A stretch of 9,683 nt of DNA, taken from the IMG/VR virus record IMGVR_UViG_2802429242_000007; one strand, given 5' to 3'. Shown piece by piece: positions 1-9,683 of this stretch. Position 1 is the first letter of the stretch; every line of letters starts with the position of its first letter. The DNA comes from a virus (Duplodnaviria > Heunggongvirae > Uroviricota > Caudoviricetes). The notes under the pieces were generated by a model that worked only from the letters and a program-made list of their open reading frames with translations, made no database searches and was not told the origin of the DNA. The translations under genes and the position numbers were made by a program.

Positions 1-651
1 CTCAACACGCAGCTTCCCTACCGTTAGCGCAATTTCCTCGTTCTCCTGGTCGCGGCGTTTGATGTATTGCTGGTTTCTTTCCCGTTCATCCAGAAGCGCC
101 AGCACAGTAGCCGGATTGGCTGCGGCGATGAATTCAGCATTGGCCTGCTGTTCAGTTTGGAAATCTTCATCGAAACCGCTTTCAGGATGCGCTCCTTCAA
201 TTCTGCAAATGGGAATATATCCAGCAACTTCACGATGAATTAGTGCATCATCACCATCAAATCGGCCATCTCCATATTCGAGCGACCACTCGCCACACGT
301 TGCTTTCTCTGCCGCCTCGCGCAGTGCCTGATAATCATCTTGCTCCCTGGTTGCCTCCTTTGCTGGGCTTTCTAACTTCTGAGTGGTTGTATCAAAATCA
401 AACAACTTAACCACGTCATCAAACAGGACATAATCGCCATCAGAATCTTCAGTCATGTCAGCGCCACAATCCTGACCGCACGAGTCGCAACCTTCCATAT
501 CAAGCTCGTATCGCTTCAGGTTTGCGATATTTGATAAATTCAGCGCCAGTACAGCCAGGTCATAAACCTCTTCGGCGGTATACCCTGCACCATGCCCATA
601 CATTTCAATGCGGGATATGATTTCTTCTACCCGTTGTTTTGTGATCGTCAT
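1..651 (-). CDS. Ead/Ea22-like phage early protein, acidic and Cys-rich; start codon in window, 3' end runs off the left edge (217 codons visible)
   Basis: Hand translation of the minus strand from ATG 651..649 is open for 217 codons to position 1 (MTITKQRVEEIISRIEMYGHGAGYTAEEVYDLAVLALN...CDSCGQDCGADM...GEWSLEYGDGRFDGDDALIHREVAGYIPICRIEGAHPESGFDEDFQTEQQANAEFIAAANPATVLALLDERERNQQYIKRRDQENEEIALTVGKLRVE). It is absent from the ORF track because no stop lies in the window. The ATG overlaps the upstream gene's stop (ATGA at 648-651). Family call is from recalled resemblance to lambdoid Ea22-type proteins, not a search. Confidence 0.55.
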   Translation of the reverse strand, partial: MTITKQRVEEIISRIEMYGHGAGYTAEEVYDLAVLALNLSNIANLKRYELDMEGCDSCGQDCGADMTEDSDGDYVLFDDVVKLFDFDTTTQKLESPAKEATREQDDYQALREAAEKATCGEWSLEYGDGRFDGDDALIHREVAGYIPICRIEGAHPESGFDEDFQTEQQANAEFIAAANPATVLALLDERERNQQYIKRRDQENEEIALTVGKLRVE

Positions 652-1127
652 TTTTGCTCACCTCCCTGTTCTTCCAGAAAAATACGCATAGCCTCAAGCA
701 TCTCTTCGGTGTCATACGGAGACAGCTTGTCACGCAGGATGTGTTCAATGCTGTTAATGAACTTTCGGATTGCTTTGCGTTCAATTTCAGTCAGGAAAGC
801 ATCGGTGGCTGGGGTGTCAACACGGATGCTGTCGCGCAAGATGAAAAATGCATTGAGCATTCCAGTCTCTGGCACTTCATCCTGATGCTTCTCATACGCA
901 TCAAGAGCCTTCATCATCTCATGTCCGAATGGTTGAGGGTGCGCAGCCTTCAGCCCCGCATTCTCCGCCGCCATCGCATTAGCACGCACCAGTTGCACTT
1001 CCAGTTGCGTTGCCAAATCGCTGATCAGCTTTGCCACACTACGCATATCAACGGCACCACATTCTGCTTTCAGTTCCGAAGCCATCTCATGCCCGGCGGA
1101 AACTAACCCTTTGATATTACTTTCCAT
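648..1127 (-). CDS. hypothetical phage protein, 159 aa
   Basis: ORF-track ORF with ATG at 1127..1125 preceded by GAGGG about 6 nt upstream; stop TGA overlaps the next ATG. No recognisable motif. Confidence 0.6.
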   Translation of the reverse strand: MESNIKGLVSAGHEMASELKAECGAVDMRSVAKLISDLATQLEVQLVRANAMAAENAGLKAAHPQPFGHEMMKALDAYEKHQDEVPETGMLNAFFILRDSIRVDTPATDAFLTEIERKAIRKFINSIEHILRDKLSPYDTEEMLEAMRIFLEEQGGEQK

Positions 1128-1188
1128 CTTTACCCTCGCTTATCCACATAACTTATTGATTACATTGATAACTAAAAAGATCGTCGAT

Positions 1189-1533
1189 TCAGAACTCTTC
1201 GATATTCCAGCCACCACCTGCTTTCTTTGGTTTAACCGTTACCCCGATGATTCGGAACGGATACTGATCTGCGGCGACTTTGGTTTTCACCCTGGCGTCG
1301 TCGGTCCAGAAACCTTTCACTTCGTGCAGTTCCATCTCTCCGGTGGCGAGCATCACAGCGAAATCGGGCGTATAAAACGTGTTGTCAGCCAGCCGCAGCT
1401 TGATACCCTCGAACCGATACCAGGCGACTTCCCCTGCACGTTTACGCTGCTCAAGGTGCTGGCAATACGCAGATTCTGTTTTGTTCATCTGGCCTGTTTT
1501 GAGTCGACCAAGAGCCTGTATCTGTTTTCTCAT
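1189..1533 (-). CDS. small PD-(D/E)XK-type nuclease, DUF1064-like (114 aa)
   Basis: 114-aa ORF with a D...E-x-K signature (YTPDFAVMLATGEMELHEVKG) typical of restriction-endonuclease-fold phage nucleases; ATG 1533..1531 with AGAGGT 7 nt upstream. Family is from memory, not searched. Confidence 0.5.
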   Translation of the reverse strand: MRKQIQALGRLKTGQMNKTESAYCQHLEQRKRAGEVAWYRFEGIKLRLADNTFYTPDFAVMLATGEMELHEVKGFWTDDARVKTKVAADQYPFRIIGVTVKPKKAGGGWNIEEF

Positions 1534-1536
1534 GAT

Positions 1537-1614
1537 TTACCTCTAAGGTAATTAAAAACCACATAAGACACGAAATCAATAGATCTAAGAATATTTTGTT
1601 ACCCATTAGGTAAC
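1537..1614 (-). promoter_or_regulatory. promoter-operator cassette for the distal leftward operon: operator sites 1537-1551 and 1598-1614 flanking a sigma70-like promoter
   Basis: Perfect inverted repeats TTACC-tctaa-GGTAA (1537-1551) and GTTACC-catta-GGTAAC (1598-1614), starts 62 bp apart. On the minus strand, -35 TTGATT (1579..1574), 17-bp spacer, -10 TTTAAT (1556..1551); the downstream operator abuts the -10. Confidence 0.6.
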
Positions 1615-1625
1615 TATTGAGGCGT

Positions 1626-1647
1626 AAAAAAATGCGCTATCGCGCTG
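1626..1647 (-). terminator. weak candidate intrinsic terminator after the P-like gene
   Basis: On the minus strand a 4-bp GC stem (GCGC-gata-GCGC, plus 1634-1645) is followed by a run of 7 T (plus A-run 1626-1632). The stem is short, so confidence is low. Confidence 0.3.
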
Positions 1648-1650
1648 GTA

Positions 1651-2436
1651 TTACTTGATAAATCCTGCTGCCTTTCCTCGCCTGTATTCCTCCATCAGCC
1701 ACTGCGCCGGTGTTATTCCCCCCAGGGTGGCGGCGTTAGGCATGCACCCGAAACTTCGCCCTGGTGGATGGTAAACATCTCTCCCTGTGTCCGGAGGCGT
1801 ACTCATGGGTTCTGGCTTTGCCTGTATGCTGATCACCGGATCGGGTATCTGCTGTCCGGAAGCCACCTTTTTCGCCCAATCATCGAGCAGCCTGCGCGCG
1901 TGTTTCTCAACCTCAATCTCGCTAAGCTGGCGCTGATACATTGCACGGCGGGTATCACATACGACCCAGTACATAACCGGATGCCGCCACGGGAATCTTT
2001 CGGGACCACCAGGATATAAACTTTTTTCCTTGCTGTACCGGTGAAACTCCGCCATCACATCGTCAATGGTGACGCCAAGAACCATCTTGCTGTCTTTACA
2101 CCACTTGATGAATTGCCCTGGCGACGGCCAGAACGGAGACTCACTGGCGCGGGCGTGGCGCATACCAGCAGAAACCTGTTCACGGGTTCGGATCCCCCCT
2201 TCGGCAAACGCAGCAATCCACTGCTGTTTTGCAGCAACTTCCTGCTCTGGCGTCTTCAGGTTGGTTACCACTGCCGCCGGAAAGAGTTGTTTCAGCTGTT
2301 TGAAAAGGGCATCAACAAGCCTCTCTGCTGACATGTTCACCACGTTGTCATTGTTGGTGTACTGATGCTCATAACCTGACATGCGAGAAAGGGCTTCTCC
2401 GTCACGGTTTTGTATCGCGGTAAAAACGTTGTTCAC
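1651..2436 (-). CDS. lambda P-like replication protein (helicase loader)
   Basis: Translation contains ...FPAAVVTNLKTPEQEVAAKQQWIAAFAEGGIRTREQVSAGMRHARASESPFWPSPGQFIKWCK..., closely matching the remembered conserved core of lambda P (FLPSPGQF..WC). Start preferred at GTG 2436..2434 (GTGA overlap with the O-like stop) with a perfect GGAGGA 6 nt upstream, rather than the track's ATG at 2451. Confidence 0.85.
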   Translation of the reverse strand: MNNVFTAIQNRDGEALSRMSGYEHQYTNNDNVVNMSAERLVDALFKQLKQLFPAAVVTNLKTPEQEVAAKQQWIAAFAEGGIRTREQVSAGMRHARASESPFWPSPGQFIKWCKDSKMVLGVTIDDVMAEFHRYSKEKSLYPGGPERFPWRHPVMYWVVCDTRRAMYQRQLSEIEVEKHARRLLDDWAKKVASGQQIPDPVISIQAKPEPMSTPPDTGRDVYHPPGRSFGCMPNAATLGGITPAQWLMEEYRRGKAAGFIK

Positions 2437-3248
2437 AAGAAATCCTCCCATGCTTCAGGGCTGTTCCAGTGCGGAACGTTGTTATCAGGTAATGTTGATT
2501 GCTTCTGTCTGCTAATCTGCAGCCGCCTTGCCAGCTTCTGCTCCCACTGTGCCTGATGGTATGCCTTACCCTCAGCCATCCAGTAAATTCTGAACTCTGC
2601 AAGTTCCTGTGCCGTTGGCAGACTGTCCAGGTAGATCCCCTGCAATGAGCTTTTCCGAAGAAAGTCATCTGATGGCTGCCATTGTTCATGCATGACAAAT
2701 TTGCCTAATTGCCCTGGCCCACCAGGAGGAACAAAGTTATTCATCACGGCGTTGTTTGCACCGGGGTCATGAGGCACAGAATCCCCGCTTTTTGTCCTGC
2801 TCTCCCTCTCTTGGTTAAATGACTGGTTATATGACTGGTTCTGGATCCCGTTTTTGGGATCATTCAACATCCCGTTTTTGGGATCATTCAACATCCCGTT
2901 TTTGGGTATATTCCCGTTTTCGGGAACATTGCCGTTTTCGGGTTCATTGCTCCCTTTCCGGTTGCCTTTAATGTTCCCGTTTTTGGTTATATTAAGAGAG
3001 AAAACCCGCACTCTTTTCGTCGCTCCCTTTCTCTCTCCGGTATCTGAAATAAGCCCCATTTTCATGAGCAATATAAGCCCGGCCTGCACGGTTTTTTTAT
3101 TCAGGCAAGTGTCTTTAACGAGGCGTTCTATGCTGGGGTAGCAGAGGTTATATTCATCGGCTCTGTCAGCCATCGAGAGCAGTATGAGCTTTAATGACGA
3201 GCTACCTGGATCTGTCTCCCAGGCCCAATCTGTTGCATGTCTGCTCAT
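2433..3248 (-). CDS. O-like replication initiator: N-terminal winged-HTH, Asn/Gly/Pro-rich repeat linker, C-terminal DnaT-like domain
   Basis: N-terminus WAWETDPGSSSLKLILLSMADRADEYNLCYPSIERLVKDTCLNKKTVQAGLILLMKMGLI resembles the replisome-organizer HTH; C-terminus ...MHEQWQPSDDFLRKSSLQGIYLDSLPTAQELAEFRIYWMAEGKAYHQAQWEQKLARRL resembles the DnaT C-terminal domain. ATG 3248..3246 with GGAG 7 nt upstream. The iteron array lies inside the gene, as ori-lambda lies inside O. Confidence 0.8.
   Translation of the reverse strand: MSRHATDWAWETDPGSSSLKLILLSMADRADEYNLCYPSIERLVKDTCLNKKTVQAGLILLMKMGLISDTGERKGATKRVRVFSLNITKNGNIKGNRKGSNEPENGNVPENGNIPKNGMLNDPKNGMLNDPKNGIQNQSYNQSFNQERESRTKSGDSVPHDPGANNAVMNNFVPPGGPGQLGKFVMHEQWQPSDDFLRKSSLQGIYLDSLPTAQELAEFRIYWMAEGKAYHQAQWEQKLARRLQISRQKQSTLPDNNVPHWNSPEAWEDFL
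2845..2990. repeat. iteron array (candidate origin of replication) inside the O-like gene
   Basis: 24-bp direct repeats start at 2845, 2869 and 2893 (the first two identical: atcccgtttttgggatcattcaac). Degenerate copies follow at 2912-2925 (TCCCGTTTTCGGGA, itself palindromic), 2931-2942 and 2975-2986. Core motif is CCCGTTTT(T/C)GGG. Confidence 0.75.
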
Positions 3249-3263
3249 GATTAATCTCCGCTA

Positions 3264-3464
3264 TCAGCTTGAATGTTGTGGGGAGGAATTAATCATGATC
3301 TGCTTAATCTCTGCCCTGATGCGACGGTTTGATTCCATGGTGCACTCAACACAGTGTCCGTTGTAAACCCAGCGTTCACTGTCATGTCCGTGCTTACATG
3401 GTTTTCCGGTGTAGTAGCGTTTAAGTCCGCGCTTTGCGGCATCAATACGTGTAATGATTTCCAT
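3264..3464 (-). CDS. small zinc-finger (Cys/His cluster) phage early protein, 66 aa
   Basis: MEIITRIDAAKRGLKRYYTGKPCKHGHDSERWVYNGHCVEC... carries a C-x-H-x-H...C-x2-C cluster. It sits between the Cro-like gene and the O-like gene, the position of cII in lambda. Start chosen at ATG 3464..3462; the track's TTG start at 3527 adds a hydrophobic low-complexity extension. Function not assigned. Confidence 0.5.
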   Translation of the reverse strand: MEIITRIDAAKRGLKRYYTGKPCKHGHDSERWVYNGHCVECTMESNRRIRAEIKQIMINSSPQHSS

Positions 3465-3999: not shown

Positions 4000-4584
4000 A
4001 TGAAAAGTATCCAGGACGTCCGCAGGCAAAATCTCAACGACTTGATCGACCGTGAATTCAATGGTGTTCAGACGCGGATGGCTGAAAAACTTGGAACTCA
4101 GGCAAATCTGGTAAACCGCTGGGCTCTTGGCAAGAAGGTTATCGGCGACCAGGTTGCACGAAAAATTGAAGCTGCCGCCAATAAACCCCGTAACTGGCTT
4201 GATATCGATCGCTCGCTTTCTCAGGAAGGTTTTCAGCCTGTCGGCCCAAGCGACATTGGCCAGCTGGCGGCTCACAACCTGGAACGCTGGATGAGCGAAA
4301 GCCGCGACCTTTCAACACAGGGAAAACTTCACCGCGCATCCGGCGTAGCCCAGGTGACAATCAGCCGCCTGTTAAACAATGAGGTCAGCGTTTCCATTTC
4401 CACCCTGGAGAATGTTGCATCCGCATTCGGGCGTCACGGCTATGAATTACTGATTCACCCGCACGACCCTGCGACCATCAACTATGATCGCTCGCGCTAC
4501 GCATTGTTACCCGAAACCGAGAAAGCAAAGATCGAAAGTTACATTGAATTTGTCATCAACCAGAACGAAAAAAACAAACAATAA
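4000..4584 (+). CDS. CI-like immunity repressor with two XRE-type HTH domains and no S24 peptidase domain, 194 aa
   Basis: Two HTH-like segments: QTRMAEKLGTQANLVNRWALGKKVIGDQVARKIEAAANKPRNWL and LSTQGKLHRASGVAQVTISRLLNNEVSVSISTLENVASAFGRHGYEL. No Ala-Gly/Ser...Lys autocleavage module is visible. Divergent from the Cro-like gene and flanked by operator clusters. Confidence 0.7.
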   Translation: MKSIQDVRRQNLNDLIDREFNGVQTRMAEKLGTQANLVNRWALGKKVIGDQVARKIEAAANKPRNWLDIDRSLSQEGFQPVGPSDIGQLAAHNLERWMSESRDLSTQGKLHRASGVAQVTISRLLNNEVSVSISTLENVASAFGRHGYELLIHPHDPATINYDRSRYALLPETEKAKIESYIEFVINQNEKNKQ

Positions 4585-4604: not shown

Positions 4605-4630
4605 AAGCCGCCTTATGGCGGCTTTTTTAT
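4605..4630 (+). terminator. intrinsic terminator after the repressor gene
   Basis: AAGCCGCC-ttat-GGCGGCTT (8-bp stem) followed by TTTTTTAT, 20 nt after the stop. Confidence 0.7.
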
Positions 4631-4640
4631 TGCCTATTCG

Positions 4641-4718
4641 ATTACCTAACGGGTAATTTTTTTAACTCATATCTATTGACATCAAACCATATACGCATAA
4701 TTATTACCTCAACGGTAA
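4641..4718 (+). promoter_or_regulatory. promoter-operator cassette (PL-like) for the rightward operon: operator sites 4641-4657 and 4704-4718 flanking a sigma70-like promoter
   Basis: ATTACC-taacg-GGTAAT (4641-4657) and TTACC-tcaac-GGTAA (4704-4718), starts 62 bp apart. -35 TTGACA (4676-4681), 17-bp spacer, -10 AATTAT (4699-4704). The geometry matches the 1537-1614 cassette exactly. Confidence 0.6.
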
Positions 4719-4737: not shown

Positions 4738-4890
4738 ATGCAGTGGAAAATCATCAACGGTTGGTACTGCGTTACTGCATGCGGATTCATGAGCTGGAAG
4801 TTCCGCACCTTACAGGAAGGCATTAAGTGGGCTTTCGTCAGCAAAGAAGCTCGCGATGTGGCCAACGATAACGAGATATGGGAGGGCTGA
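4738..4890 (+). CDS. small Trp/Cys-rich protein, 50 aa, first gene of the rightward operon
   Basis: ATG 4738 with GAGGT 8 nt upstream; MQWKIINGWYCVTACGFMSWKFRTLQEGIKWAFVSKEARDVANDNEIWEG. Not in the ORF track, probably because of a length cutoff. The stop lies within the next gene's ribosome-binding region. Confidence 0.45.
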   Translation: MQWKIINGWYCVTACGFMSWKFRTLQEGIKWAFVSKEARDVANDNEIWEG

Positions 4891-4892
4891 TA

Positions 4893-5192
4893 ATGAACGT
4901 TAATCAGCAGAAAAATCTTCAAAAAATCATGCTGGCATTCGACAAGGACTACCGCCTGTCAGAACAGCTATATGACCGACAAGTTGAACTGATTGAGAGC
5001 ATCCGACTTCATCAACTGTCCTCAACTTTCGACGTTGTAACAGGCAAAGGCGTTCGTCAGGAAGTACTGGAGGCTGCTAAAGACAGCCCTGAGTTCGAAG
5101 AACTGATGGATGCCTATCGGCGAGAGGCAATGGCAATTATCGCCCGCTGGGATCTGGCTGATCAGCTTGATGGGCAGAGGGACGCGGCATGA
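4893..5192 (+). CDS. hypothetical phage early protein, 99 aa
   Basis: ATG 4893 with GGAGGG 6 nt upstream (the track's start at 4878 is less likely); stop overlaps the exonuclease ATG (ATGA at 5189-5192). Confidence 0.6.
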   Translation: MNVNQQKNLQKIMLAFDKDYRLSEQLYDRQVELIESIRLHQLSSTFDVVTGKGVRQEVLEAAKDSPEFEELMDAYRREAMAIIARWDLADQLDGQRDAA

Positions 5193-6010
5193 AACCGGGA
5201 ATTTATTTCGACATCAGCAACGAAGACTACCACGCCGGTGACGGCGTGAGTAAGTCGCAACTGGACATGGTTGCCAAGAATCCGGCGCTTCTTAAATGGG
5301 TTCAGGCAGCACCAGAAGACGAAGAGAAAAAGTCTGCACTGGATATGGGAACCGCATTGCACTGCCTGCTTCTGGAACCTGGAGAATTCGACAAACGCTT
5401 CATCGTTTCACCGAAATTCGATCGTCGGACGAAACAAGGTAAAGCTGACGAAGAGGCATTTCTTCGTGATGTGGCGGATATGGGGATTACGGTACTTGAT
5501 GCCGAGCAGTGGCGGAAACTGGAGCTGATGCGTGATAGCGCAATGGCTCACCCGGCGGCACGCTGGATGCTGGAAGCCCCTGGTTACTGCGAAGCATCAA
5601 TGTACTGGAACGATGAAGATACGGGTGAGTTGTGCCGCATTCGTCCAGACAAATGGCTGAACGAGCACAACGTGATCGTCGACGTGAAAAAGGTTGCAGA
5701 TATGGACCGTTTTGCACGCCACATCGAGGAATTCCGCTACCACGTGCAGGACGCAATGTACCGCGAAGGCGCAATGAGGGTTACTGGTCAGCCGCATGGT
5801 TTTTTCTTTCTTGCCGTGAGCGAAAGCATTGATTGTGGTCGATATCCGGTACGCGTGTTCGAGCTGGATGCGCCGGATGTCGATGCCGGGCACGCTCTGT
5901 TCCGCCGGGATCTGAATACCTATCACGAATGCCGCATCAACGATGAGTGGGGCGGAGTGGAAATTATTAAACGCCATGACTGGGCACGTAAACAGGATAT
6001 GTACGTATGA
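5189..6010 (+). CDS. PD-(D/E)XK exonuclease of the RecE (exodeoxyribonuclease VIII) C-terminal-domain type, 273 aa
   Basis: N-terminus MKPGIYFDISNEDYHAGDGVSKSQL and an internal D...VDVKK motif fit the RecE-type nuclease domain as I recall it; ATGA-coupled to the downstream annealing protein, as in recE-recT. Confidence 0.7.
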   Translation: MKPGIYFDISNEDYHAGDGVSKSQLDMVAKNPALLKWVQAAPEDEEKKSALDMGTALHCLLLEPGEFDKRFIVSPKFDRRTKQGKADEEAFLRDVADMGITVLDAEQWRKLELMRDSAMAHPAARWMLEAPGYCEASMYWNDEDTGELCRIRPDKWLNEHNVIVDVKKVADMDRFARHIEEFRYHVQDAMYREGAMRVTGQPHGFFFLAVSESIDCGRYPVRVFELDAPDVDAGHALFRRDLNTYHECRINDEWGGVEIIKRHDWARKQDMYV

Positions 6011-6888
6011 GCAATGATATCGCAATCACATCACAACCAGGCGCAACTGTAGGTACTGCTGCGGCAATCTTCAGCCCGGAGGGCATGAATCAACTGGTGC
6101 GTTTCGCGGAGTTGATGTCACAAAGCAAAGCGACTGTACCGAAACATCTTGAAGGCAAACCTGCCGATTGTCTGGCGGTGACCATGCAGGCGGCACAGTG
6201 GGGAATGAACCCTTTCGCCGTGGCGCAGAAAACGCATGTGGTAAACGGAACGTTAGGCTACGAAGCACAGTTGGTAAACGCGGTCGTATCCTCTTCCAGC
6301 CTGCTAGCGACACGCCTGAATTATCGCTGGAGCGGTGACTGGTCGAATGTTAACGGCAAAACAGATAAATCACCGAATCTGACGGTAACTGTGTCAGCAG
6401 TTCTTAAAGGAGAAGCAGAACCCCGTGAGCTTACCATCAGTATGGCGCAAGCCGGAGTGCGTAACTCTCCATTGTGGGAACAGGATCCGCGCCAGCAACT
6501 TGCCTATCTTTGCACGAAACGATGGGCTCGCCTGCACGCTCCTGATGTACTTCTCGGTGTTTACACCCCAGACGAATTACAGGAAACGGCACCGCGCGTT
6601 GAGCGAGACATTACTCCGCAAACGACTACTGCTGCGGGAATGAACAGTCTGATCAACGCTAAACCAGCGAAAAAGCATGATGAGCAAACGCGTAAAGCGG
6701 ATAGCCGTGATCCAGAAGAAATGCTGATGGCCTTTACCAGCGCAGCGATGAATTACAGCACTGTCTCCGAACTGGATAAGGCTTACAAATACATTGCACA
6801 AAAACTTTCAGATGATGACGAACTGCTGGCAAAAGCCACCGACGTTTACAGCGTTCGTCGGGAAGAATTAAACGAAACATCTATGTAA
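6007..6888 (+). CDS. RecT/Red-beta family single-strand annealing protein, 293 aa
   Basis: Core ...CLAVTMQAAQWGMNPFAVAQKTHVVNG... resembles the RecT/Bet conserved region, and an ERDITP motif is shared with my recollection of lambda Bet. Sits immediately after the exonuclease with an ATGA overlap. Confidence 0.75.
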   Translation: MSNDIAITSQPGATVGTAAAIFSPEGMNQLVRFAELMSQSKATVPKHLEGKPADCLAVTMQAAQWGMNPFAVAQKTHVVNGTLGYEAQLVNAVVSSSSLLATRLNYRWSGDWSNVNGKTDKSPNLTVTVSAVLKGEAEPRELTISMAQAGVRNSPLWEQDPRQQLAYLCTKRWARLHAPDVLLGVYTPDELQETAPRVERDITPQTTTAAGMNSLINAKPAKKHDEQTRKADSRDPEEMLMAFTSAAMNYSTVSELDKAYKYIAQKLSDDDELLAKATDVYSVRREELNETSM

Positions 6889-6896
6889 CCACCACC

Positions 6897-6915
6897 GCGG
6901 CGCAACACGCGCCGC
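6897..6915 (+). other. GC-rich hairpin without a U-tract, between the annealing-protein and excisionase genes
   Basis: GCGGCGC-aacac-GCGCCGC (perfect 7-bp stem), 9 nt after the TAA stop; no T-run follows. Confidence 0.4.
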
Positions 6916-6937
6916 ACTGCAACCAAGAGAGGTATTT

Positions 6938-7186
6938 ATGAAAGGTGCATTAGGTAAGAAGGAACTCCTGGCGGTGGTGCCACTGTCATGGAGCACTATC
7001 GACCGTATGGAGCGCGCAGGGGAATTTCCTAAACGCTGGTATATCACTGACAAACGCTGCGCATGGAACCGTGATGAAGTTGAGCGTTGGCTTGATGAAC
7101 GTCAGGCAGCAAGCCCGGCAGAGTTCCAAGGTAAAAAACCTCCTGTTCAGCAACGTGTATATCGTCCTGTGAGCAACGCGGCATGA
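6938..7186 (+). CDS. AlpA/Xis-family excisionase-like DNA-binding protein, 82 aa
   Basis: LLAVVPLSWSTIDRMERAGEFPKRWYITDKRCAWNRDEVERWLDER fits the AlpA/excisionase winged-helix pattern; GAGAGG 6 nt upstream of the ATG. Confidence 0.75.
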   Translation: MKGALGKKELLAVVPLSWSTIDRMERAGEFPKRWYITDKRCAWNRDEVERWLDERQAASPAEFQGKKPPVQQRVYRPVSNAA

Positions 7187-7299
7187 GTGTGCTGCTAAAG
7201 CACTGGAGCAAATGGTCAGGATGGTACTTATTCCTGGCCTCTGTTTCAGCATGGCTTTATCTGCTGGCATTAATTTTCAGAGAGGGTTGGATTAAGTGA
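7183..7299 (+). CDS. small hydrophobic peptide, 38 aa, possibly membrane-associated
   Basis: ATG overlaps the excisionase stop (ATGA at 7183-7186); MSVLLKHWSKWSGWYLFLASVSAWLYLLALIFREGWIK has one predicted transmembrane-like stretch. Not in the ORF track (short). Confidence 0.4.
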   Translation: MSVLLKHWSKWSGWYLFLASVSAWLYLLALIFREGWIK

Positions 7300-7595
7300 G
7301 AGAGTTAAGCCGACTTGAAAAATATCACATGAACAAGGTTTCAATGCGCAGCCCTTCAAAGGTTGTTGCCGTTACTCCTGCGGCGATAGAGATCGAAAAA
7401 CGCGCGATTGAAAGAGAGCAAAAAGGGCAATTCCGAATTGCCGCCTACCTTTGGCTTCAGTGTATGGATGTTGCTTCTGGTGATGTTGAGCGTGCAAGGA
7501 TCGCGGTTCGCAGGGACCAATGTATCACAAAAGGTAACGGCCTTCGCCGTGGCGACTATAGCGGCATAGGATGTTGTGGGGTGGTTTATGACTAA
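7296..7595 (+). CDS. ANR-like (Aar-type) small regulatory protein; start uncertain
   Basis: ...AAIEIEKRAIEREQKGQFRIAAYLWLQCMDVASGDVERARIAVRRDQC... resembles the ANR family pattern. Start may be GTG 7296 (GTGA overlap with the peptide stop), ATG 7329 or ATG 7344. 3' end overlaps the methyltransferase start by 8 nt. Confidence 0.5.
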   Translation: MRELSRLEKYHMNKVSMRSPSKVVAVTPAAIEIEKRAIEREQKGQFRIAAYLWLQCMDVASGDVERARIAVRRDQCITKGNGLRRGDYSGIGCCGVVYD

Positions 7596-8238
7596 GAAAT
7601 ACACACTAATCTATGCAGATCCACCCTGGGTATACCGGGACAAAGCCGCAGATGGTAATCGCGGTGCCGGTTTTAAATATCCGGTTATGAGTGTGCTGGA
7701 TATCTGCCGCCTTCCTGTGTGGGATTTGGCCGATGAAAACTGTCTGTTGGCCATGTGGTGGGTGCCAACACAACCACTCGAAGCACTAAAAGTTGTTGAA
7801 GCCTGGGGATTCCGTCTGATGACGATGAAGGGCTTCACGTGGATAAAATGTGGTAGTCGACAACCAGATAAACTTGTTATGGGTATGGGACACATGACTC
7901 GCGCCAATAGTGAAGATTGCCTGTTTGCGGTAAAGGGAAAACTACCTACGCGCATTAATGCAGGGATCGTTCAGTCATTTACCGCACCGCGGCTTGAGCA
8001 TTCAAGAAAGCCAGATATCGTTCGTGAAAAACTTGTGCAATTATTAGGCGATGTTTCTCGCATTGAACTGTTCGCCCGCCAGACGTCTCATGGCTTCGAT
8101 GTTTGGGGTAATCAGTGCGAAGACCCGGCAGTGCAACTACACCCTGGATACGCGTTGGATATTGGCGGATTAACAAATGCATTCAGCAATGCTCCGCTGT
8201 CACCAACAGACAACCAGGGACGGGAGCGTGCTGCATGA
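7588..8238 (+). CDS. MT-A70-family DNA N6-adenine methyltransferase, 216 aa
   Basis: DPPW catalytic motif near the N-terminus (YTLIYADPPWVYRD) and downstream conserved blocks (LLAMWW, EAWGF, GMGHMTRANSEDCLFAVKG). Start at ATG 7588 with GGGGTGG upstream rather than the track's GTG at 7576. Confidence 0.85.
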   Translation: MTKKYTLIYADPPWVYRDKAADGNRGAGFKYPVMSVLDICRLPVWDLADENCLLAMWWVPTQPLEALKVVEAWGFRLMTMKGFTWIKCGSRQPDKLVMGMGHMTRANSEDCLFAVKGKLPTRINAGIVQSFTAPRLEHSRKPDIVREKLVQLLGDVSRIELFARQTSHGFDVWGNQCEDPAVQLHPGYALDIGGLTNAFSNAPLSPTDNQGRERAA

Positions 8239-8429
8239 ACAGGGCATCACCAGCAGATTTAAGAAAATGCCTTGAAACTGCAAACATGCTTGCACACAGC
8301 GGGATCAGGTTTGTTCCAATTCCCGCTGTCACTGATGCTGAATTTGCAACACTGTCAGCAATATTCGAAAACAAAATTGAATCACTGGCAGCAGAAGCAG
8401 AGATGGAAGAAAATCAGCAGAACTATTAA
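8235..8429 (+). CDS. hypothetical small protein, 64 aa, translationally coupled to the methyltransferase
   Basis: ATG 8235 overlaps the methyltransferase stop (ATGA); MNRASPADLRKCLETANMLAHSGIRFVPIPAVTDAEFATLSAIFENKIESLAAEAEMEENQQNY. The track's longer version (from 8115) overlaps the methyltransferase in another frame and is rejected. Confidence 0.55.
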   Translation: MNRASPADLRKCLETANMLAHSGIRFVPIPAVTDAEFATLSAIFENKIESLAAEAEMEENQQNY

Positions 8430-8432
8430 ACG

Positions 8433-9683
8433 TTATTCCCCCGCCATCCACTTCTCAAACTTCGACGGGGAGAACGGAATCAGATCCGTATGCTCCCCGT
8501 CAATCCATGAATCAATCATATCGGCCCACTGCTGCAACATGTAGGCGCGCTGTCTGGCGTATTCCGCTTTGTTATATACGGCGCGCACACCTTTCTGCTC
8601 ATGTGCCAGAGCCTTTTCAATCCAGTCTGAAGGATAACCAGCCTCATGCAACAACGTACTGGCTGTACGGCGCATATCATGTACAGTGAAGTCCTGAATA
8701 TGCTCACCATCTTCATTTATTATTTTCACCGTTCTGTCGATCAGAGAGTTCAGCGCGGCATTAGATAATGGCTTCCGGAAATTGTAACGACCAGGAACCA
8801 GATATTCACTTCCACCAGCGCACATCTGCAACCCGACCAATATATCCTGTGCCTGTTTAGGCAGGTAAATAACGTGCGCCCGGCTTCCCTTCATGCGGTC
8901 TGGAGGAATTGTCCATGTCCATTTTTTAAAATCTATTTCATCCCACGTTGCATTGGTGAATTCGCCCTTACGAACCATAGTGATAAGCACCAGTTTTAAA
9001 GCCATTTTCATAGTGCCCATAGCACCAATGGCATCCAGCGTGCGGAAGAACAGGCCAATTTCTTCTGGTGTCAGTGTTCGCTCTCGTGGTTTAAATATGG
9101 CGATAGACGAAGGTTTAATGTCAGCCGCAGGATTAAACAAACCATGACCACGGTCATTGGCGTGACGGTATACGCTACTGATGATCTCCCTGGCCTGCAC
9201 TGCTGTTGCCCGGCCACCGCGTTCGACAATCCGGTCACACAAATCACGAACCATCGATGTGGTAATTTCAGCCATCATTTTATTGCCAAGAGCCGGAAGT
9301 ATGTCACGGTCGATCACCGCCTGTTTCATTGCGCGGGTACTGTCAGCCAGGATGACGTGTTTCATATAACTGTCGGTATGTACCGCAAACGTCTCGGCAC
9401 CACGAATCTTTTTGATACCGTCACGTTTAGCCGCAGCCGGTGACTGGCCTGCTTTAAGCAGCTTCTTTGCAGCAATCAGTTCTTCTCGCGCTTCTGCCAG
9501 GCTGATACCGTCACGCCCATACTGCCCGATTACCAGTGTTTCGCGGCGACCGTTGATACGGTAGTCATAGCGAAACGAGACCGTGCCTGACGTAAGCACA
9601 GCTACATACAGCCCGTCACGATCGGAGACCTTGTACAGTTTGTCCTGCGGCTTGAGGTTTTTTAATTTTGTATCGGTAAGCAC
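8433..9683 (-). CDS. int: tyrosine site-specific integrase, P4-like family; 5' end at or just beyond the window edge
   Basis: 416 codons; N-terminal arm-binding-type sequence (LTDTKLKNLKPQDKLYKVSDRDGLYVAV) and a C-terminal catalytic region with the H-x-x-R box (HDMRRTASTLL) and a Tyr-containing tail (VYNKAEYARQRAYMLQQWADMID). The first in-window codon is GTG at 9683, so the true start may lie 1-3 codons outside. Confidence 0.9.
   Translation of the reverse strand: MLTDTKLKNLKPQDKLYKVSDRDGLYVAVLTSGTVSFRYDYRINGRRETLVIGQYGRDGISLAEAREELIAAKKLLKAGQSPAAAKRDGIKKIRGAETFAVHTDSYMKHVILADSTRAMKQAVIDRDILPALGNKMMAEITTSMVRDLCDRIVERGGRATAVQAREIISSVYRHANDRGHGLFNPAADIKPSSIAIFKPRERTLTPEEIGLFFRTLDAIGAMGTMKMALKLVLITMVRKGEFTNATWDEIDFKKWTWTIPPDRMKGSRAHVIYLPKQAQDILVGLQMCAGGSEYLVPGRYNFRKPLSNAALNSLIDRTVKIINEDGEHIQDFTVHDMRRTASTLLHEAGYPSDWIEKALAHEQKGVRAVYNKAEYARQRAYMLQQWADMIDSWIDGEHTDLIPFSPSKFEKWMAGE

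Follow-up and report, generated by a model that had tools for sequence, protein, structure and literature searches.

The integrase-proximal genes of a phiV10-type E. coli prophage as a probable mosaic end of the early-left operon, with an orphan MT-A70 methyltransferase

The five genes at positions 6938–8429 of the DNA analysed very probably make up the end of the early-left operon that lies next to the integrase in a phiV10/epsilon15-like (Uetakevirus) E. coli prophage, a counterpart of the lambda exo-xis region in which separately acting accessory genes are assembled as a mosaic. The block is ordinary and already known: it is annotated in phiV10, all five of its genes belong to catalogued protein families, and it does not represent a new system. 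The analysis covered the whole stretch of 9,683 nucleotides from the IMG/VR record IMGVR_UViG_2802429242_000007, which is called the window below and has the following features.

4738..6888, + strand: upstream part of the operon, with two small ORFs, a PDDEXK exonuclease and RecT (Pfam DUF3799, RecT)
6897..6915, + strand: GC-rich hairpin with a 7-bp stem, an AACAC loop and no U tract (fold of 6880–6945)
6938..7186, + strand: AlpA-family winged-helix protein, 82 aa (Pfam Phage_AlpA, PHROG 66, PDB 8C3T)
7183..7299, + strand: predicted single-pass membrane peptide, 38 aa (PHROG 17484; hydrophobic segment at about residues 14–32)
7296..7595, + strand: PerC-family small helical protein, 99 aa, GTG start (Pfam PerC, PHROG 868)
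7588..8238, + strand: orphan MT-A70 (beta-class) putative N6-adenine methyltransferase, 216 aa (Pfam MT-A70; DPPW at 7618–7629)
8235..8429, + strand: lambda Orf63 homolog, DUF1382, 64 aa (Pfam DUF1382, PDB 8DSB)
8433..9683, − strand: P4-type tyrosine integrase (Pfam Arm-DNA-bind_3, Phage_int_M, Phage_integrase)

The sequence was read directly at each junction of the five plus-strand genes. The TGA stop codon of the first gene (7184–7186) overlaps the ATG at 7183 within ATGA, and the TGA of the second (7297–7299) overlaps the GTG at 7296 within GTGA. The third gene ends with TAA at 7593–7595, while the methyltransferase ATG lies at 7588, which gives an overlap of 8 nt. The TGA of the methyltransferase gene (8236–8238) overlaps the ATG at 8235, again within ATGA, and the last, 64-aa ORF ends at 8429. 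The gene calls and all four overlaps given in an earlier note on this DNA were thus correct. All five ORFs look real, four of them scoring above the Pfam gathering thresholds, and comparison with relatives supports the start codons as chosen. Tyrion, SPC32H and a Klebsiella phage all retain the [A/G]TGA junction that precedes the PerC gene, the methyltransferase N-terminus M..KYTLIYADPPW is common to all relatives compared, and the alignment with lambda Orf63 begins at residue 2 of the 64-aa ORF.

The same chain of overlaps had also been taken to imply that the five genes are co-translated as a unit, and this part of the claim did not hold. Overlaps were found at 7 of the 8 junctions across the whole operon (4738–8429), including exo, recT and the other upstream genes at 4738..6888, which are joined by overlaps of the same kind; the overlaps of the five-gene block are therefore not distinctive. 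Nor are the five genes conserved together as a dedicated coupled module, as the genes beside the methyltransferase vary among related phages.

The block aligns with phiV10 (NC_007804) along its full 1492 bases at 97.5% identity, and its counterpart there, PhiV10p36–p32, has all five genes annotated. What had been described as not a standard named module is therefore a named and annotated gene set. The block was present in 559 of 5426 complete E. coli genomes. A scan of IMG/VR with the methyltransferase returned 80 loci, all of them 98–100% identical, which consequently add prevalence and no diversity.

In Tyrion, SPC32H and the Klebsiella phage, the AlpA gene, the 38-aa gene and the PerC gene stay together, and one or two genes (DUF1317, a winged-helix gene or DndB) lie between PerC and the methyltransferase. 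The gene that follows the methyltransferase in the relatives is DUF1382 or a winged-helix-like, coiled-coil or membrane gene; the order methyltransferase–DUF1382 is also found in Stx2a phages. There are also natural deletion variants in which PerC is fused to DUF1382 and the methyltransferase is removed. As the flanks of the methyltransferase vary while the AlpA, 38-aa and PerC genes hold together, we conclude that this is a mosaic accessory region rather than one module.

A promoter-like site is located downstream of the repressor-like gene at 4676–4704, after a terminator at 4605–4624; the site is a consensus match only, in a region that has fewer such sites than its shuffles. The promoter and terminator scan of the plus strand detected no internal promoter or terminator in 6900–8500. 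The operon has a single spacer, which separates recT from the AlpA gene and holds the hairpin. This element dominates the fold of the 66-nt segment 6880–6945 (−17.7 kcal/mol, z −1.76) and is shared by five phages, of which SPC32H shows a compensatory change. The Rfam search of the whole window at E <= 1 returned just a chance-level match to isrG, outside the block. At the other end, the integrase is convergent with the operon, with 3 nt between its stop and that of the Orf63 homolog; the terminator scan found no terminator-like site between the two genes. The same convergent layout is seen in phiV10, Tyrion, SPC32H and PA8.

The 82-aa protein, the counterpart of phiV10 p36, scored 24.2 bits against Pfam Phage_AlpA (PF05930, cut-off 21) and matched PHROG 66, “excisionase and transcriptional regulator” (E 2e-16), as well as PDB 8C3T, an AlpA family protein (E 1.8e-11), for which a literature search found no paper. 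A profile match above the gathering score and a P4-type integrase in the same element place it in the AlpA family, which agrees with the earlier description of the first gene as an excisionase. Judged from its sequence, it probably serves the P4-type integrase as excisionase (recombination directionality factor). The alternative is a transcription regulator, as the AlpA family comprises both excisionases and transcription activators, such as the AlpA of PICIs, a pure activator (PMC11773190, PMC6092414).

The 38-aa ORF, which is phiV10 p35, matched PHROG 17484, “membrane protein”, over 38 of 38 positions (E 2.6e-26). The membrane peptide proposed for this position was borne out as a conserved, predicted single-pass protein. 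In every comparison between distinct phages, the gene showed dN/dS values of 0.11–0.26 and substitutions biased to third positions, and five phages from four host genera retain its length as well as the overlaps at its two ends. The window and phiV10 differ in this gene at 2 sites only, both non-synonymous. The gene is left unannotated by PGAP in E. coli genomes, and the peptide falls into only 5 representative clusters among 1.84 billion proteins.

In size and composition, the hydrophobic 38-aa peptide is like small membrane toxins. Together with the accessory position beside the integrase, this would suit a prophage-borne system of anti-phage defence or abortive infection, such as a membrane toxin peptide accompanied by regulators. 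We nevertheless consider such a system extremely improbable: when the five proteins were submitted to PADLOC, its MTase_II models matched the methyltransferase only and the other four proteins had no match. Moreover, the genes lie in a lytic early operon and not under a lysogenic promoter, and the four genes other than the methyltransferase belong to catalogued phage families.

The 99-aa protein had been called an ANR-like regulator. It passed the threshold of Pfam PerC (PF06069, 28.2 bits vs 22.6), with profile positions 5–50 of 90 covered, and failed that of NCBIfam ANR_neg_reg (NF033650, 23.2 bits vs 32; E 4.5e-5, residues 35–77) over the same residues. As far as the profiles tell, its likeness to ANR is a distant resemblance only. 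The PerC assignment agrees with PHROG 868 (E 2.7e-60) and with PGAP, which also names the protein PerC-family in E. coli genomes. The residues upstream of an internal ATG are conserved across the family and thus support the long GTG start. The AlphaFold2 model was predicted to be all-helical (pLDDT 73, core 80–90), and Foldseek gave no match to the PDB at E <= 0.001. The weak Foldseek matches were of a generic kind (TPR- or MIT-type helical repeats), and no mechanism can be derived from them.

The 64-aa protein matched Pfam DUF1382 (PF07131) with 105.2 bits over profile positions 1–60 of 60 and PDB 8DSB with E 8.5e-13 over residues 2–62, the core strand GIRFVPIP being conserved. It should be noted that the label of this entry, “Xis (Excision72)”, is misleading, and 8DSB was rejected as an excisionase: it is the NMR structure of lambda Orf63, a protein of the exo-xis region with published pro-lytic developmental phenotypes (PMC10869804). 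The full-length profile match and the alignment to the solved lambda protein, including its beta-strand, identify the 64-aa ORF as an Orf63 homolog. The pro-lytic effect and the dimer have been described for the Orf63 proteins of lambda and Stx phages (PMC10869804). The ORF can therefore no longer be called uncharacterised; the earlier note had itself named well-characterised homologs of the small ORFs as an outcome that would speak against its reading, and this is in part what was found.

The fourth gene product scored 80 bits against Pfam MT-A70 (PF05063, cut-off 23.9, E 2.6e-22) over profile positions 1–172 of 172. The match spans residues 5–176 of 216, leaving little beyond the catalytic domain. 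Residues 11–14 form the DPPW motif, whose N-terminal location corresponds to the beta-class motif order; DPPW is also the active-site motif of the enzyme of phage PA8 (PMC10810198). The PDB matches were the Tetrahymena MTA1 complex and METTL3. Neither the window nor the 13.5 kb of annotated phiV10 sequence inspected contained a restriction endonuclease, and with the PADLOC match limited to the methyltransferase itself, the description of the enzyme as an orphan stands. Over residues 1–187, it is 83.4% identical to PA8 gp5, M.EcoPA8orf6770P, and is orthologous to that catalytic subunit. M.EcoGIX was rejected as a relative, being a plasmid enzyme with no link to the block.

The substrate of such small MT-A70 enzymes is disputed in the literature, GATC in DNA standing against 16S rRNA. 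The earlier note had most simply taken the orphan enzyme for an anti-restriction, self-methylating one. On this explanation, the methyltransferase protects phage DNA from host restriction, and the chained small genes make up one anti-defence or host-modulating unit with it. The missing endonuclease and the PADLOC view of a Type II-like methyltransferase are consistent with this, and early expression would suit the protection of replicating DNA. According to PMC10810198, M.EcoPA8orf6770P also has a high similarity to M.EcoGV, an enzyme that on overproduction methylates GATC in vivo, and GATC is given for M.EcoGV in REBASE-based tables.

However, GATC is already methylated by E. coli Dam, and the window contains 37 GATC sites against 38–50 expected, which is neither depletion nor enrichment and gives no clue to the target. 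Purified M.EcoPA8orf6770P is weak on DNA in vitro, while together with its partner PNB-2 it prefers 16S rRNA and raises spontaneous induction (PMC10810198); with these properties in the closest studied enzyme, self-methylation as the simplest explanation became doubtful. The proposed unit is further contradicted by the free swapping of neighbours among related phages, by the operon-wide overlaps, which leave no defined unit, and by the existence of the deletion variants without the methyltransferase. We regard protection by self-methylation, with the small genes as its partners, as possible but rather unlikely.

MT-A70 enzymes are usually heteromeric, and the PA8 enzyme needs the upstream-encoded PNB-2 for its 16S rRNA preference (PMC10810198). 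In parallel to this PA8 holoenzyme, the methyltransferase of the window could be the catalytic subunit of a heteromeric 16S rRNA methyltransferase, with the PerC-like or the Orf63-like neighbour as its specificity subunit. Its identity to the PA8 enzyme, its confinement to hardly more than a catalytic domain and the methyltransferase–DUF1382 order of the Stx2a phages point in this direction. The construct used for the published co-expression extended as far as the DUF1382 stop codon and thus encoded an Orf63 homolog. Orf63 also has a cleft that binds a helix (PMC10869804), and the PerC-like protein is modelled as a helical bundle with no match to a DNA-binding fold.

Meanwhile, several observations argue against such a heteromer. 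In the BLASTP comparison, PNB-2 had no similarity to any of the block products, and the gene upstream of the methyltransferase is of the PerC family; the PerC-like protein was thus rejected as the PNB-2 equivalent. The C-terminal ~27 residues of the PA8 enzyme have been proposed to be needed for PNB-2 binding (PMC10810198), but the alignment of the two enzymes ends at residue 187 and their last 21–29 residues are unrelated. The methyltransferase of Tyrion shares the tail of the window's enzyme and yet has no DUF1382 downstream; the idea that the tail co-varies with a downstream DUF1382 gene was therefore rejected. In Tyrion, SPC32H and the Klebsiella phage, as already mentioned, PerC does not adjoin the methyltransferase. 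Finally, lambda has Orf63 and is not known to carry an MT-A70 gene. An rRNA methyltransferase of this composition is, in our estimate, distinctly unlikely.

Decidedly improbable in our judgement, too, is the wider proposal that the small MT-A70 enzyme of phiV10-type prophages forms the catalytic core of a heteromeric enzyme that methylates RNA or rRNA, and is not a Dam-like anti-restriction enzyme. Its specificity would then come from a coupled neighbour, the Orf63-like dimer or the PerC-like helical adaptor, both unrelated to PNB-2.

For the preferred reading, a mosaic end of the early-left operon, the following course of events may be proposed. After infection or induction, a transcript would start from the promoter just downstream of the repressor-like gene and run through exo and recT into the five genes, and ribosomes would re-initiate at the overlapping stop and start sites. 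The five products, whose family membership is shown and whose functions are inferred, would then act separately. The AlpA-family protein most likely turns the P4-type integrase to excision, and the 38-aa peptide is expected to insert in the inner membrane. The helical protein of the PerC family is most likely a modulator of transcription that works via protein contacts. The MT-A70 enzyme would methylate adenine at N6, its most likely target being GATC in DNA and, given a partner, possibly RNA. The Orf63 homolog would bias development to lysis.

With the block belonging to a well-known phage group, there is little new in it as such, and its value is that of a pointer. Prophages of the phiV10 type occur in roughly one in ten complete E. 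coli genomes, and in this very common prophage a close homolog of the MT-A70 enzyme of Stx phages is found without the specificity partner PNB-2. Comparing this natural “PNB-2-less” version with that of the Stx phages would help to decide between DNA and RNA as the target of small MT-A70 enzymes. If the heteromeric RNA reading were true, it would link two “mystery” families to epitranscriptomic control of the lysis–lysogeny decision.

Among known systems, phiV10 is the nearest: it has the same five genes in the same order, with the same overlaps and the convergent integrase. It differs by a few amino-acid substitutions and by its RefSeq annotation, in which exo and recT are one fused CDS, whereas the window has two ORFs. 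The Uetakevirus relatives (the epsilon15 group, SPC32H/SPN1S and Tyrion) also carry the block, the more distant ones inserting other genes around the methyltransferase.

M.EcoPA8orf6770P with PNB-2 of Stx2a phages, together with M.EcoGV, is another close system; the enzyme of the window resembles that of PA8 over residues 1–187 and in the DPPW motif. PA8 also has the downstream DUF1382 gene and the convergent integrase of the window. However, it encodes PNB-2, a winged-helix protein of 143 aa, where the window has a PerC-family gene upstream of the methyltransferase.

With the winged-helix excisionases and regulators of the AlpA/Vis/Xis type, the block shares the Pfam AlpA and PHROG matches and the nearby P4-type integrase, but here four genes lie between the AlpA gene and the integrase and the orientation is convergent. 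The 99-aa protein is related to the PerC/Pch regulators of EPEC, EHEC prophages and PICIs by a PerC score above the threshold, and to the ANR family by one below it, both reflecting the same helical core. Like Pch and the PerC of PICIs, it is a small protein on a mobile element. PerC-family members can activate or repress LEE1 (PMC11773190). The 99-aa protein differs from the PerC/Pch regulators in that just part of the profile (positions 5–50) matches and that the predicted helical bundle has no recognisable DNA-binding motif.

The lambda exo-xis region, finally, resembles the block in the full-length alignment of Orf63 with the 64-aa product, including the GIRFVPIP strand, and in the placing of Orf63, which in both lies within the early-left operon, with the recombination genes on one side and the integrase on the other. 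In contrast to lambda, the window lacks orf60a, orf61, orf73 and ea22 of the exo-xis region, and its Orf63 homolog is the last gene of the operon, abutting the convergent integrase.

The five plus-strand genes at 6938-8429 were delimited by direct reading of the sequence together with the ORF table, and both bore out exactly the anatomy described in the earlier note, namely five consecutive ORFs with four overlaps.

Genes of the block at 6938-8429
6938-7186, plus strand: ORF 1, 82 aa, AlpA family
7183-7299, plus strand: ORF 2, 38 aa, membrane peptide
7296-7595, plus strand: ORF 3, 99 aa, GTG start, PerC family
7588-8238, plus strand: ORF 4, 216 aa, MT-A70 methyltransferase
8235-8429, plus strand: ORF 5, 64 aa, Orf63/DUF1382 homolog

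The junctions are, in order, ATGA, GTGA, an 8-nt overlap and ATGA. The chosen start codons are backed by relatives: an [A/G]TGA junction also lies 5' of the 99-aa gene in Tyrion, SPC32H and a Klebsiella phage; LxxLEKYH, the residues upstream of the internal ATG of the 99-aa ORF, is kept across 32 family members; M..KYTLIYADPPW is the N-terminus in all methyltransferase relatives; and the alignment with lambda Orf63 starts at residue 2 of the 64-aa product. Across 4738-8429, with the upstream genes, exo and recT included, seven of the eight junctions overlap, the sole gap being a 49-nt spacer 5' of 6938, and the overlaps are no distinguishing mark of the five block genes.

Over its 1492 bases the block is 97.5% identical to Escherichia phage phiV10 (genus Uetakevirus, epsilon15 group), in which the same five genes are annotated PhiV10p36 to p32 and are followed by the same convergent integrase. 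Of 5426 complete E. coli genomes, 559 carry it, as do at least 80 IMG/VR prophage contigs that are near-identical; guaA is the neighbour of the prophage in E. coli SF-468. Four of the products match Pfam families above threshold, and by sequence comparison these are AlpA, PerC, MT-A70 and DUF1382/Orf63, the remaining product being a member of a small family of phage peptides. The proposal that the block is an unnamed, uncharacterised module was therefore abandoned: it is the already known phiV10 p36-p32, with parts in known families. It belongs neither to the holoenzyme of the Stx2a phage PA8, nor to the ANR family, nor to any PADLOC defence system.

The 82-aa product matches Pfam Phage_AlpA (24.2 bits, threshold 21) and PHROG 66, 'excisionase and transcriptional regulator' (E 2e-16). 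PDB 8C3T, an AlpA family protein, is among its matches, and PA8 Xis aligns with it in register but weakly. The AlpA family holds excisionases working with P4-type integrases as well as pure activators such as PICI AlpA (PMC11773190, PMC6092414). As the only excisionase-type protein near this integrase, the 82-aa product is most likely an excisionase.

The 38-aa ORF matches PHROG 17484 and encodes a peptide that is basic at its N-terminus and carries some 19 hydrophobic residues in a row. Its length and both overlapping junctions are kept in five phages (Escherichia, Enterobacter, Salmonella, Klebsiella), all comparisons of distinct phages give a dN/dS of 0.11-0.26, and third positions hold most of the substitutions, so that it is a real gene. 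The window and phiV10 differ here at only two sites, both non-synonymous. The family is tiny (five representative clusters among 1.84 billion proteins), with the motif RHWxKWSGWY...AWLYLLAxIF..GW[IL]K, and in all five phages examined the gene sits between the AlpA and PerC genes. PGAP leaves it unannotated in E. coli SF-468 (L089 4246-4362, equal to window 7183-7299), the one genome examined, and it does not figure in the feature lists of the top E. coli matches either; the phiV10 RefSeq record has it.

The 99-aa product passes the Pfam PerC threshold (28.2 vs 22.6 bits, profile positions 5-50 of 90). Over the PerC-matching residues it does not reach the NCBIfam ANR cut-off (23.2 vs 32 bits), so that the label 'ANR-like' given to it previously holds as a distant resemblance and not as family membership, and PerC is the proper label. 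An AlphaFold2 model (32 homologs) gave a four-helix protein (pLDDT 73, core 80-90), for which no significant fold match was found in the PDB; action through protein contacts would fit this model. PerC-family proteins of mobile elements can activate or repress LEE1 (PMC11773190).

The 216-aa product has a complete MT-A70 domain, with DPPW at residues 11-14, and a tail of about 40 residues. Neither the window nor 13.5 kb of annotated phiV10 sequence contains an endonuclease gene, and methyltransferase models were the only PADLOC matches, which confirmed the orphan status proposed before. The enzyme is 83.4% identical over residues 1-187 to PA8 gp5 (M.EcoPA8orf6770P), whose C-terminal tail is unrelated. 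M.EcoPA8orf6770P raises spontaneous induction and virulence in a DPPW-dependent manner; alone it is weak on DNA. Its partner in a 1:1 complex is PNB-2, a winged-helix protein of 143 aa whose gene lies immediately upstream, and this complex prefers 16S rRNA as substrate (PMC10810198). M.EcoPA8orf6770P also shows high similarity to M.EcoGV, an enzyme that upon overproduction methylates GATC in vivo (PMC10810198). Since PNB-2 is absent from the window and the enzyme tail differs, the PA8 holoenzyme is not encoded here. The PerC-like protein shows no similarity to PNB-2.

For the methyltransferase, we rank first a Dam-like GATC DNA methylase that would act on phage or host DNA and influence induction, and second an RNA methyltransferase that would work with a further partner. 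GATC occurs in the window at an unremarkable frequency, which favours neither target over the other. The reverse primer of p-M.EcoPA8F2, the plasmid co-expressing PNB-2 and the methyltransferase (PMC10810198), matches the stop end of the PA8 DUF1382 gene (L004 2056-2268); thus, the construct from which the 'two-subunit' holoenzyme was purified encodes an Orf63-like protein as well.

The 64-aa product matches Pfam DUF1382 (105 bits) and PDB 8DSB (E 8.5e-13), with the GIRFVPIP strand conserved, and these alignments identify it as a full-length homolog of lambda Orf63. The label of 8DSB, 'Xis (Excision72)', is misleading, as the entry is Orf63. A dimer encoded in the exo-xis region, Orf63 accelerates lysis and makes fewer hosts survive in lambda and Stx phages (PMC10869804).

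In related phages the AlpA-38-aa-PerC trio is constant and the surroundings of the methyltransferase gene vary; the start of this gene overlaps its upstream gene in each of them, whichever gene that is.

Neighbours of the methyltransferase gene in related phages
Tyrion: upstream, DUF1317 gene, then winged-helix gene; downstream, small non-DUF1382 gene, no Pfam match
SPC32H: upstream, DUF1317 and DndB genes; downstream, coiled-coil gene
Klebsiella phage: upstream, DUF1317 gene; downstream, membrane gene, then coiled-coil gene
PA8 (Stx2a): upstream, PNB-2; downstream, DUF1382 gene
06-3462 (Stx2a): upstream, unrelated 76-aa gene; downstream, DUF1382 gene
HK639 (L008 1912-3160): PNB-2 homolog, 142 aa, two genes upstream of a 45%-identical MT-A70 gene
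Hafnia phage: upstream, DUF4060 gene

The Tyrion methyltransferase has the same tail as that of the window and no DUF1382 gene downstream, indicating that this tail and Orf63 do not travel together. Natural variants in public genomes (P0118, P0094, P0109) carry deletions or fusions of block genes: in one, the N-terminal half of PerC is joined to DUF1382 with loss of the methyltransferase gene; in others, the 38-aa peptide is joined to PerC, or PerC to DUF1317. We conclude that the block is not one unit but an accessory-gene mosaic of the usual kind, in which exchange takes place at gene boundaries. In Tyrion (L003 2784-3851), the upstream winged-helix gene is Pfam HTH_24, and the small downstream gene resembles its sequence pattern. 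Small winged-helix proteins may be frequent companions of this subfamily of small MT-A70 enzymes, although this is not the case in the window.

Operon setting of the block
4000-4584: repressor-like gene
4605-4624, plus strand: strong terminator-like hairpin, directly 3' of the repressor-like gene
4676-4704, plus strand: promoter-like site, the best in the region, TTGACA-17-AATTAT
Between promoter-like site and block: two small ORFs, PDDEXK exonuclease, RecT
Opposite strand: P4-type integrase, stop codon separated by 3 nt from that of the last block gene

No terminator-like or promoter-like site was found on the plus strand in 6900-8500, which makes the block the promoter-distal part of the early-left operon. 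The putative early-left promoter would sit 3' of the repressor-like gene and point in the same direction, which differs from lambda. The exonuclease (5189-6010) and RecT (6007-6888) are separate ORFs with an ATGA overlap in the window, and one fused RecE-RecT CDS is annotated in RefSeq phiV10 (L001 4191-5951); this fusion may be genuine, or it may reflect how phiV10 was sequenced or annotated. A GC-rich hairpin without a U tract (6897-6915, plus strand, GCGGCGC-AACAC-GCGCCGC) lies in the spacer that separates recT from the AlpA gene, the single intergenic gap of the operon. phiV10, Tyrion, a Klebsiella phage and SPC32H all keep it, SPC32H with compensatory C>T and G>A changes; possible roles are processing or stabilisation of RNA or, as a palindrome, protein binding. 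At 8429-8433, the operon and the integrase gene converge with 3 nt between stops and no terminator, and the convergent layout recurs at the corresponding junction in phiV10 (L001), Tyrion (L003), PA8 (L004) and records L005 and L006. In SPC32H the operon end and the integrase gene overlap by 4 nt, and the xis/int overlap of PA8 is 17 nt. Early-promoter transcripts that read past this junction would be complementary to integrase mRNA and might thereby damp integrase in lytic growth.

The analysis establishes how the genes are built, which families they belong to, how the operon is laid out, and its conservation and mosaicism; the mode of action given next is inferred. Upon infection or induction, an early-left transcript would run through exo and recT into the block genes, ribosomes would re-initiate at the overlaps, and the products would act independently of one another. 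The AlpA-family protein would control excision, the 38-aa peptide would serve some membrane function, the PerC-family protein would modulate transcription via protein contacts, the MT-A70 enzyme would methylate adenine, and the Orf63 homolog would push the phage to lytic development. Compared with lambda, the block is the counterpart of the exo-xis region.
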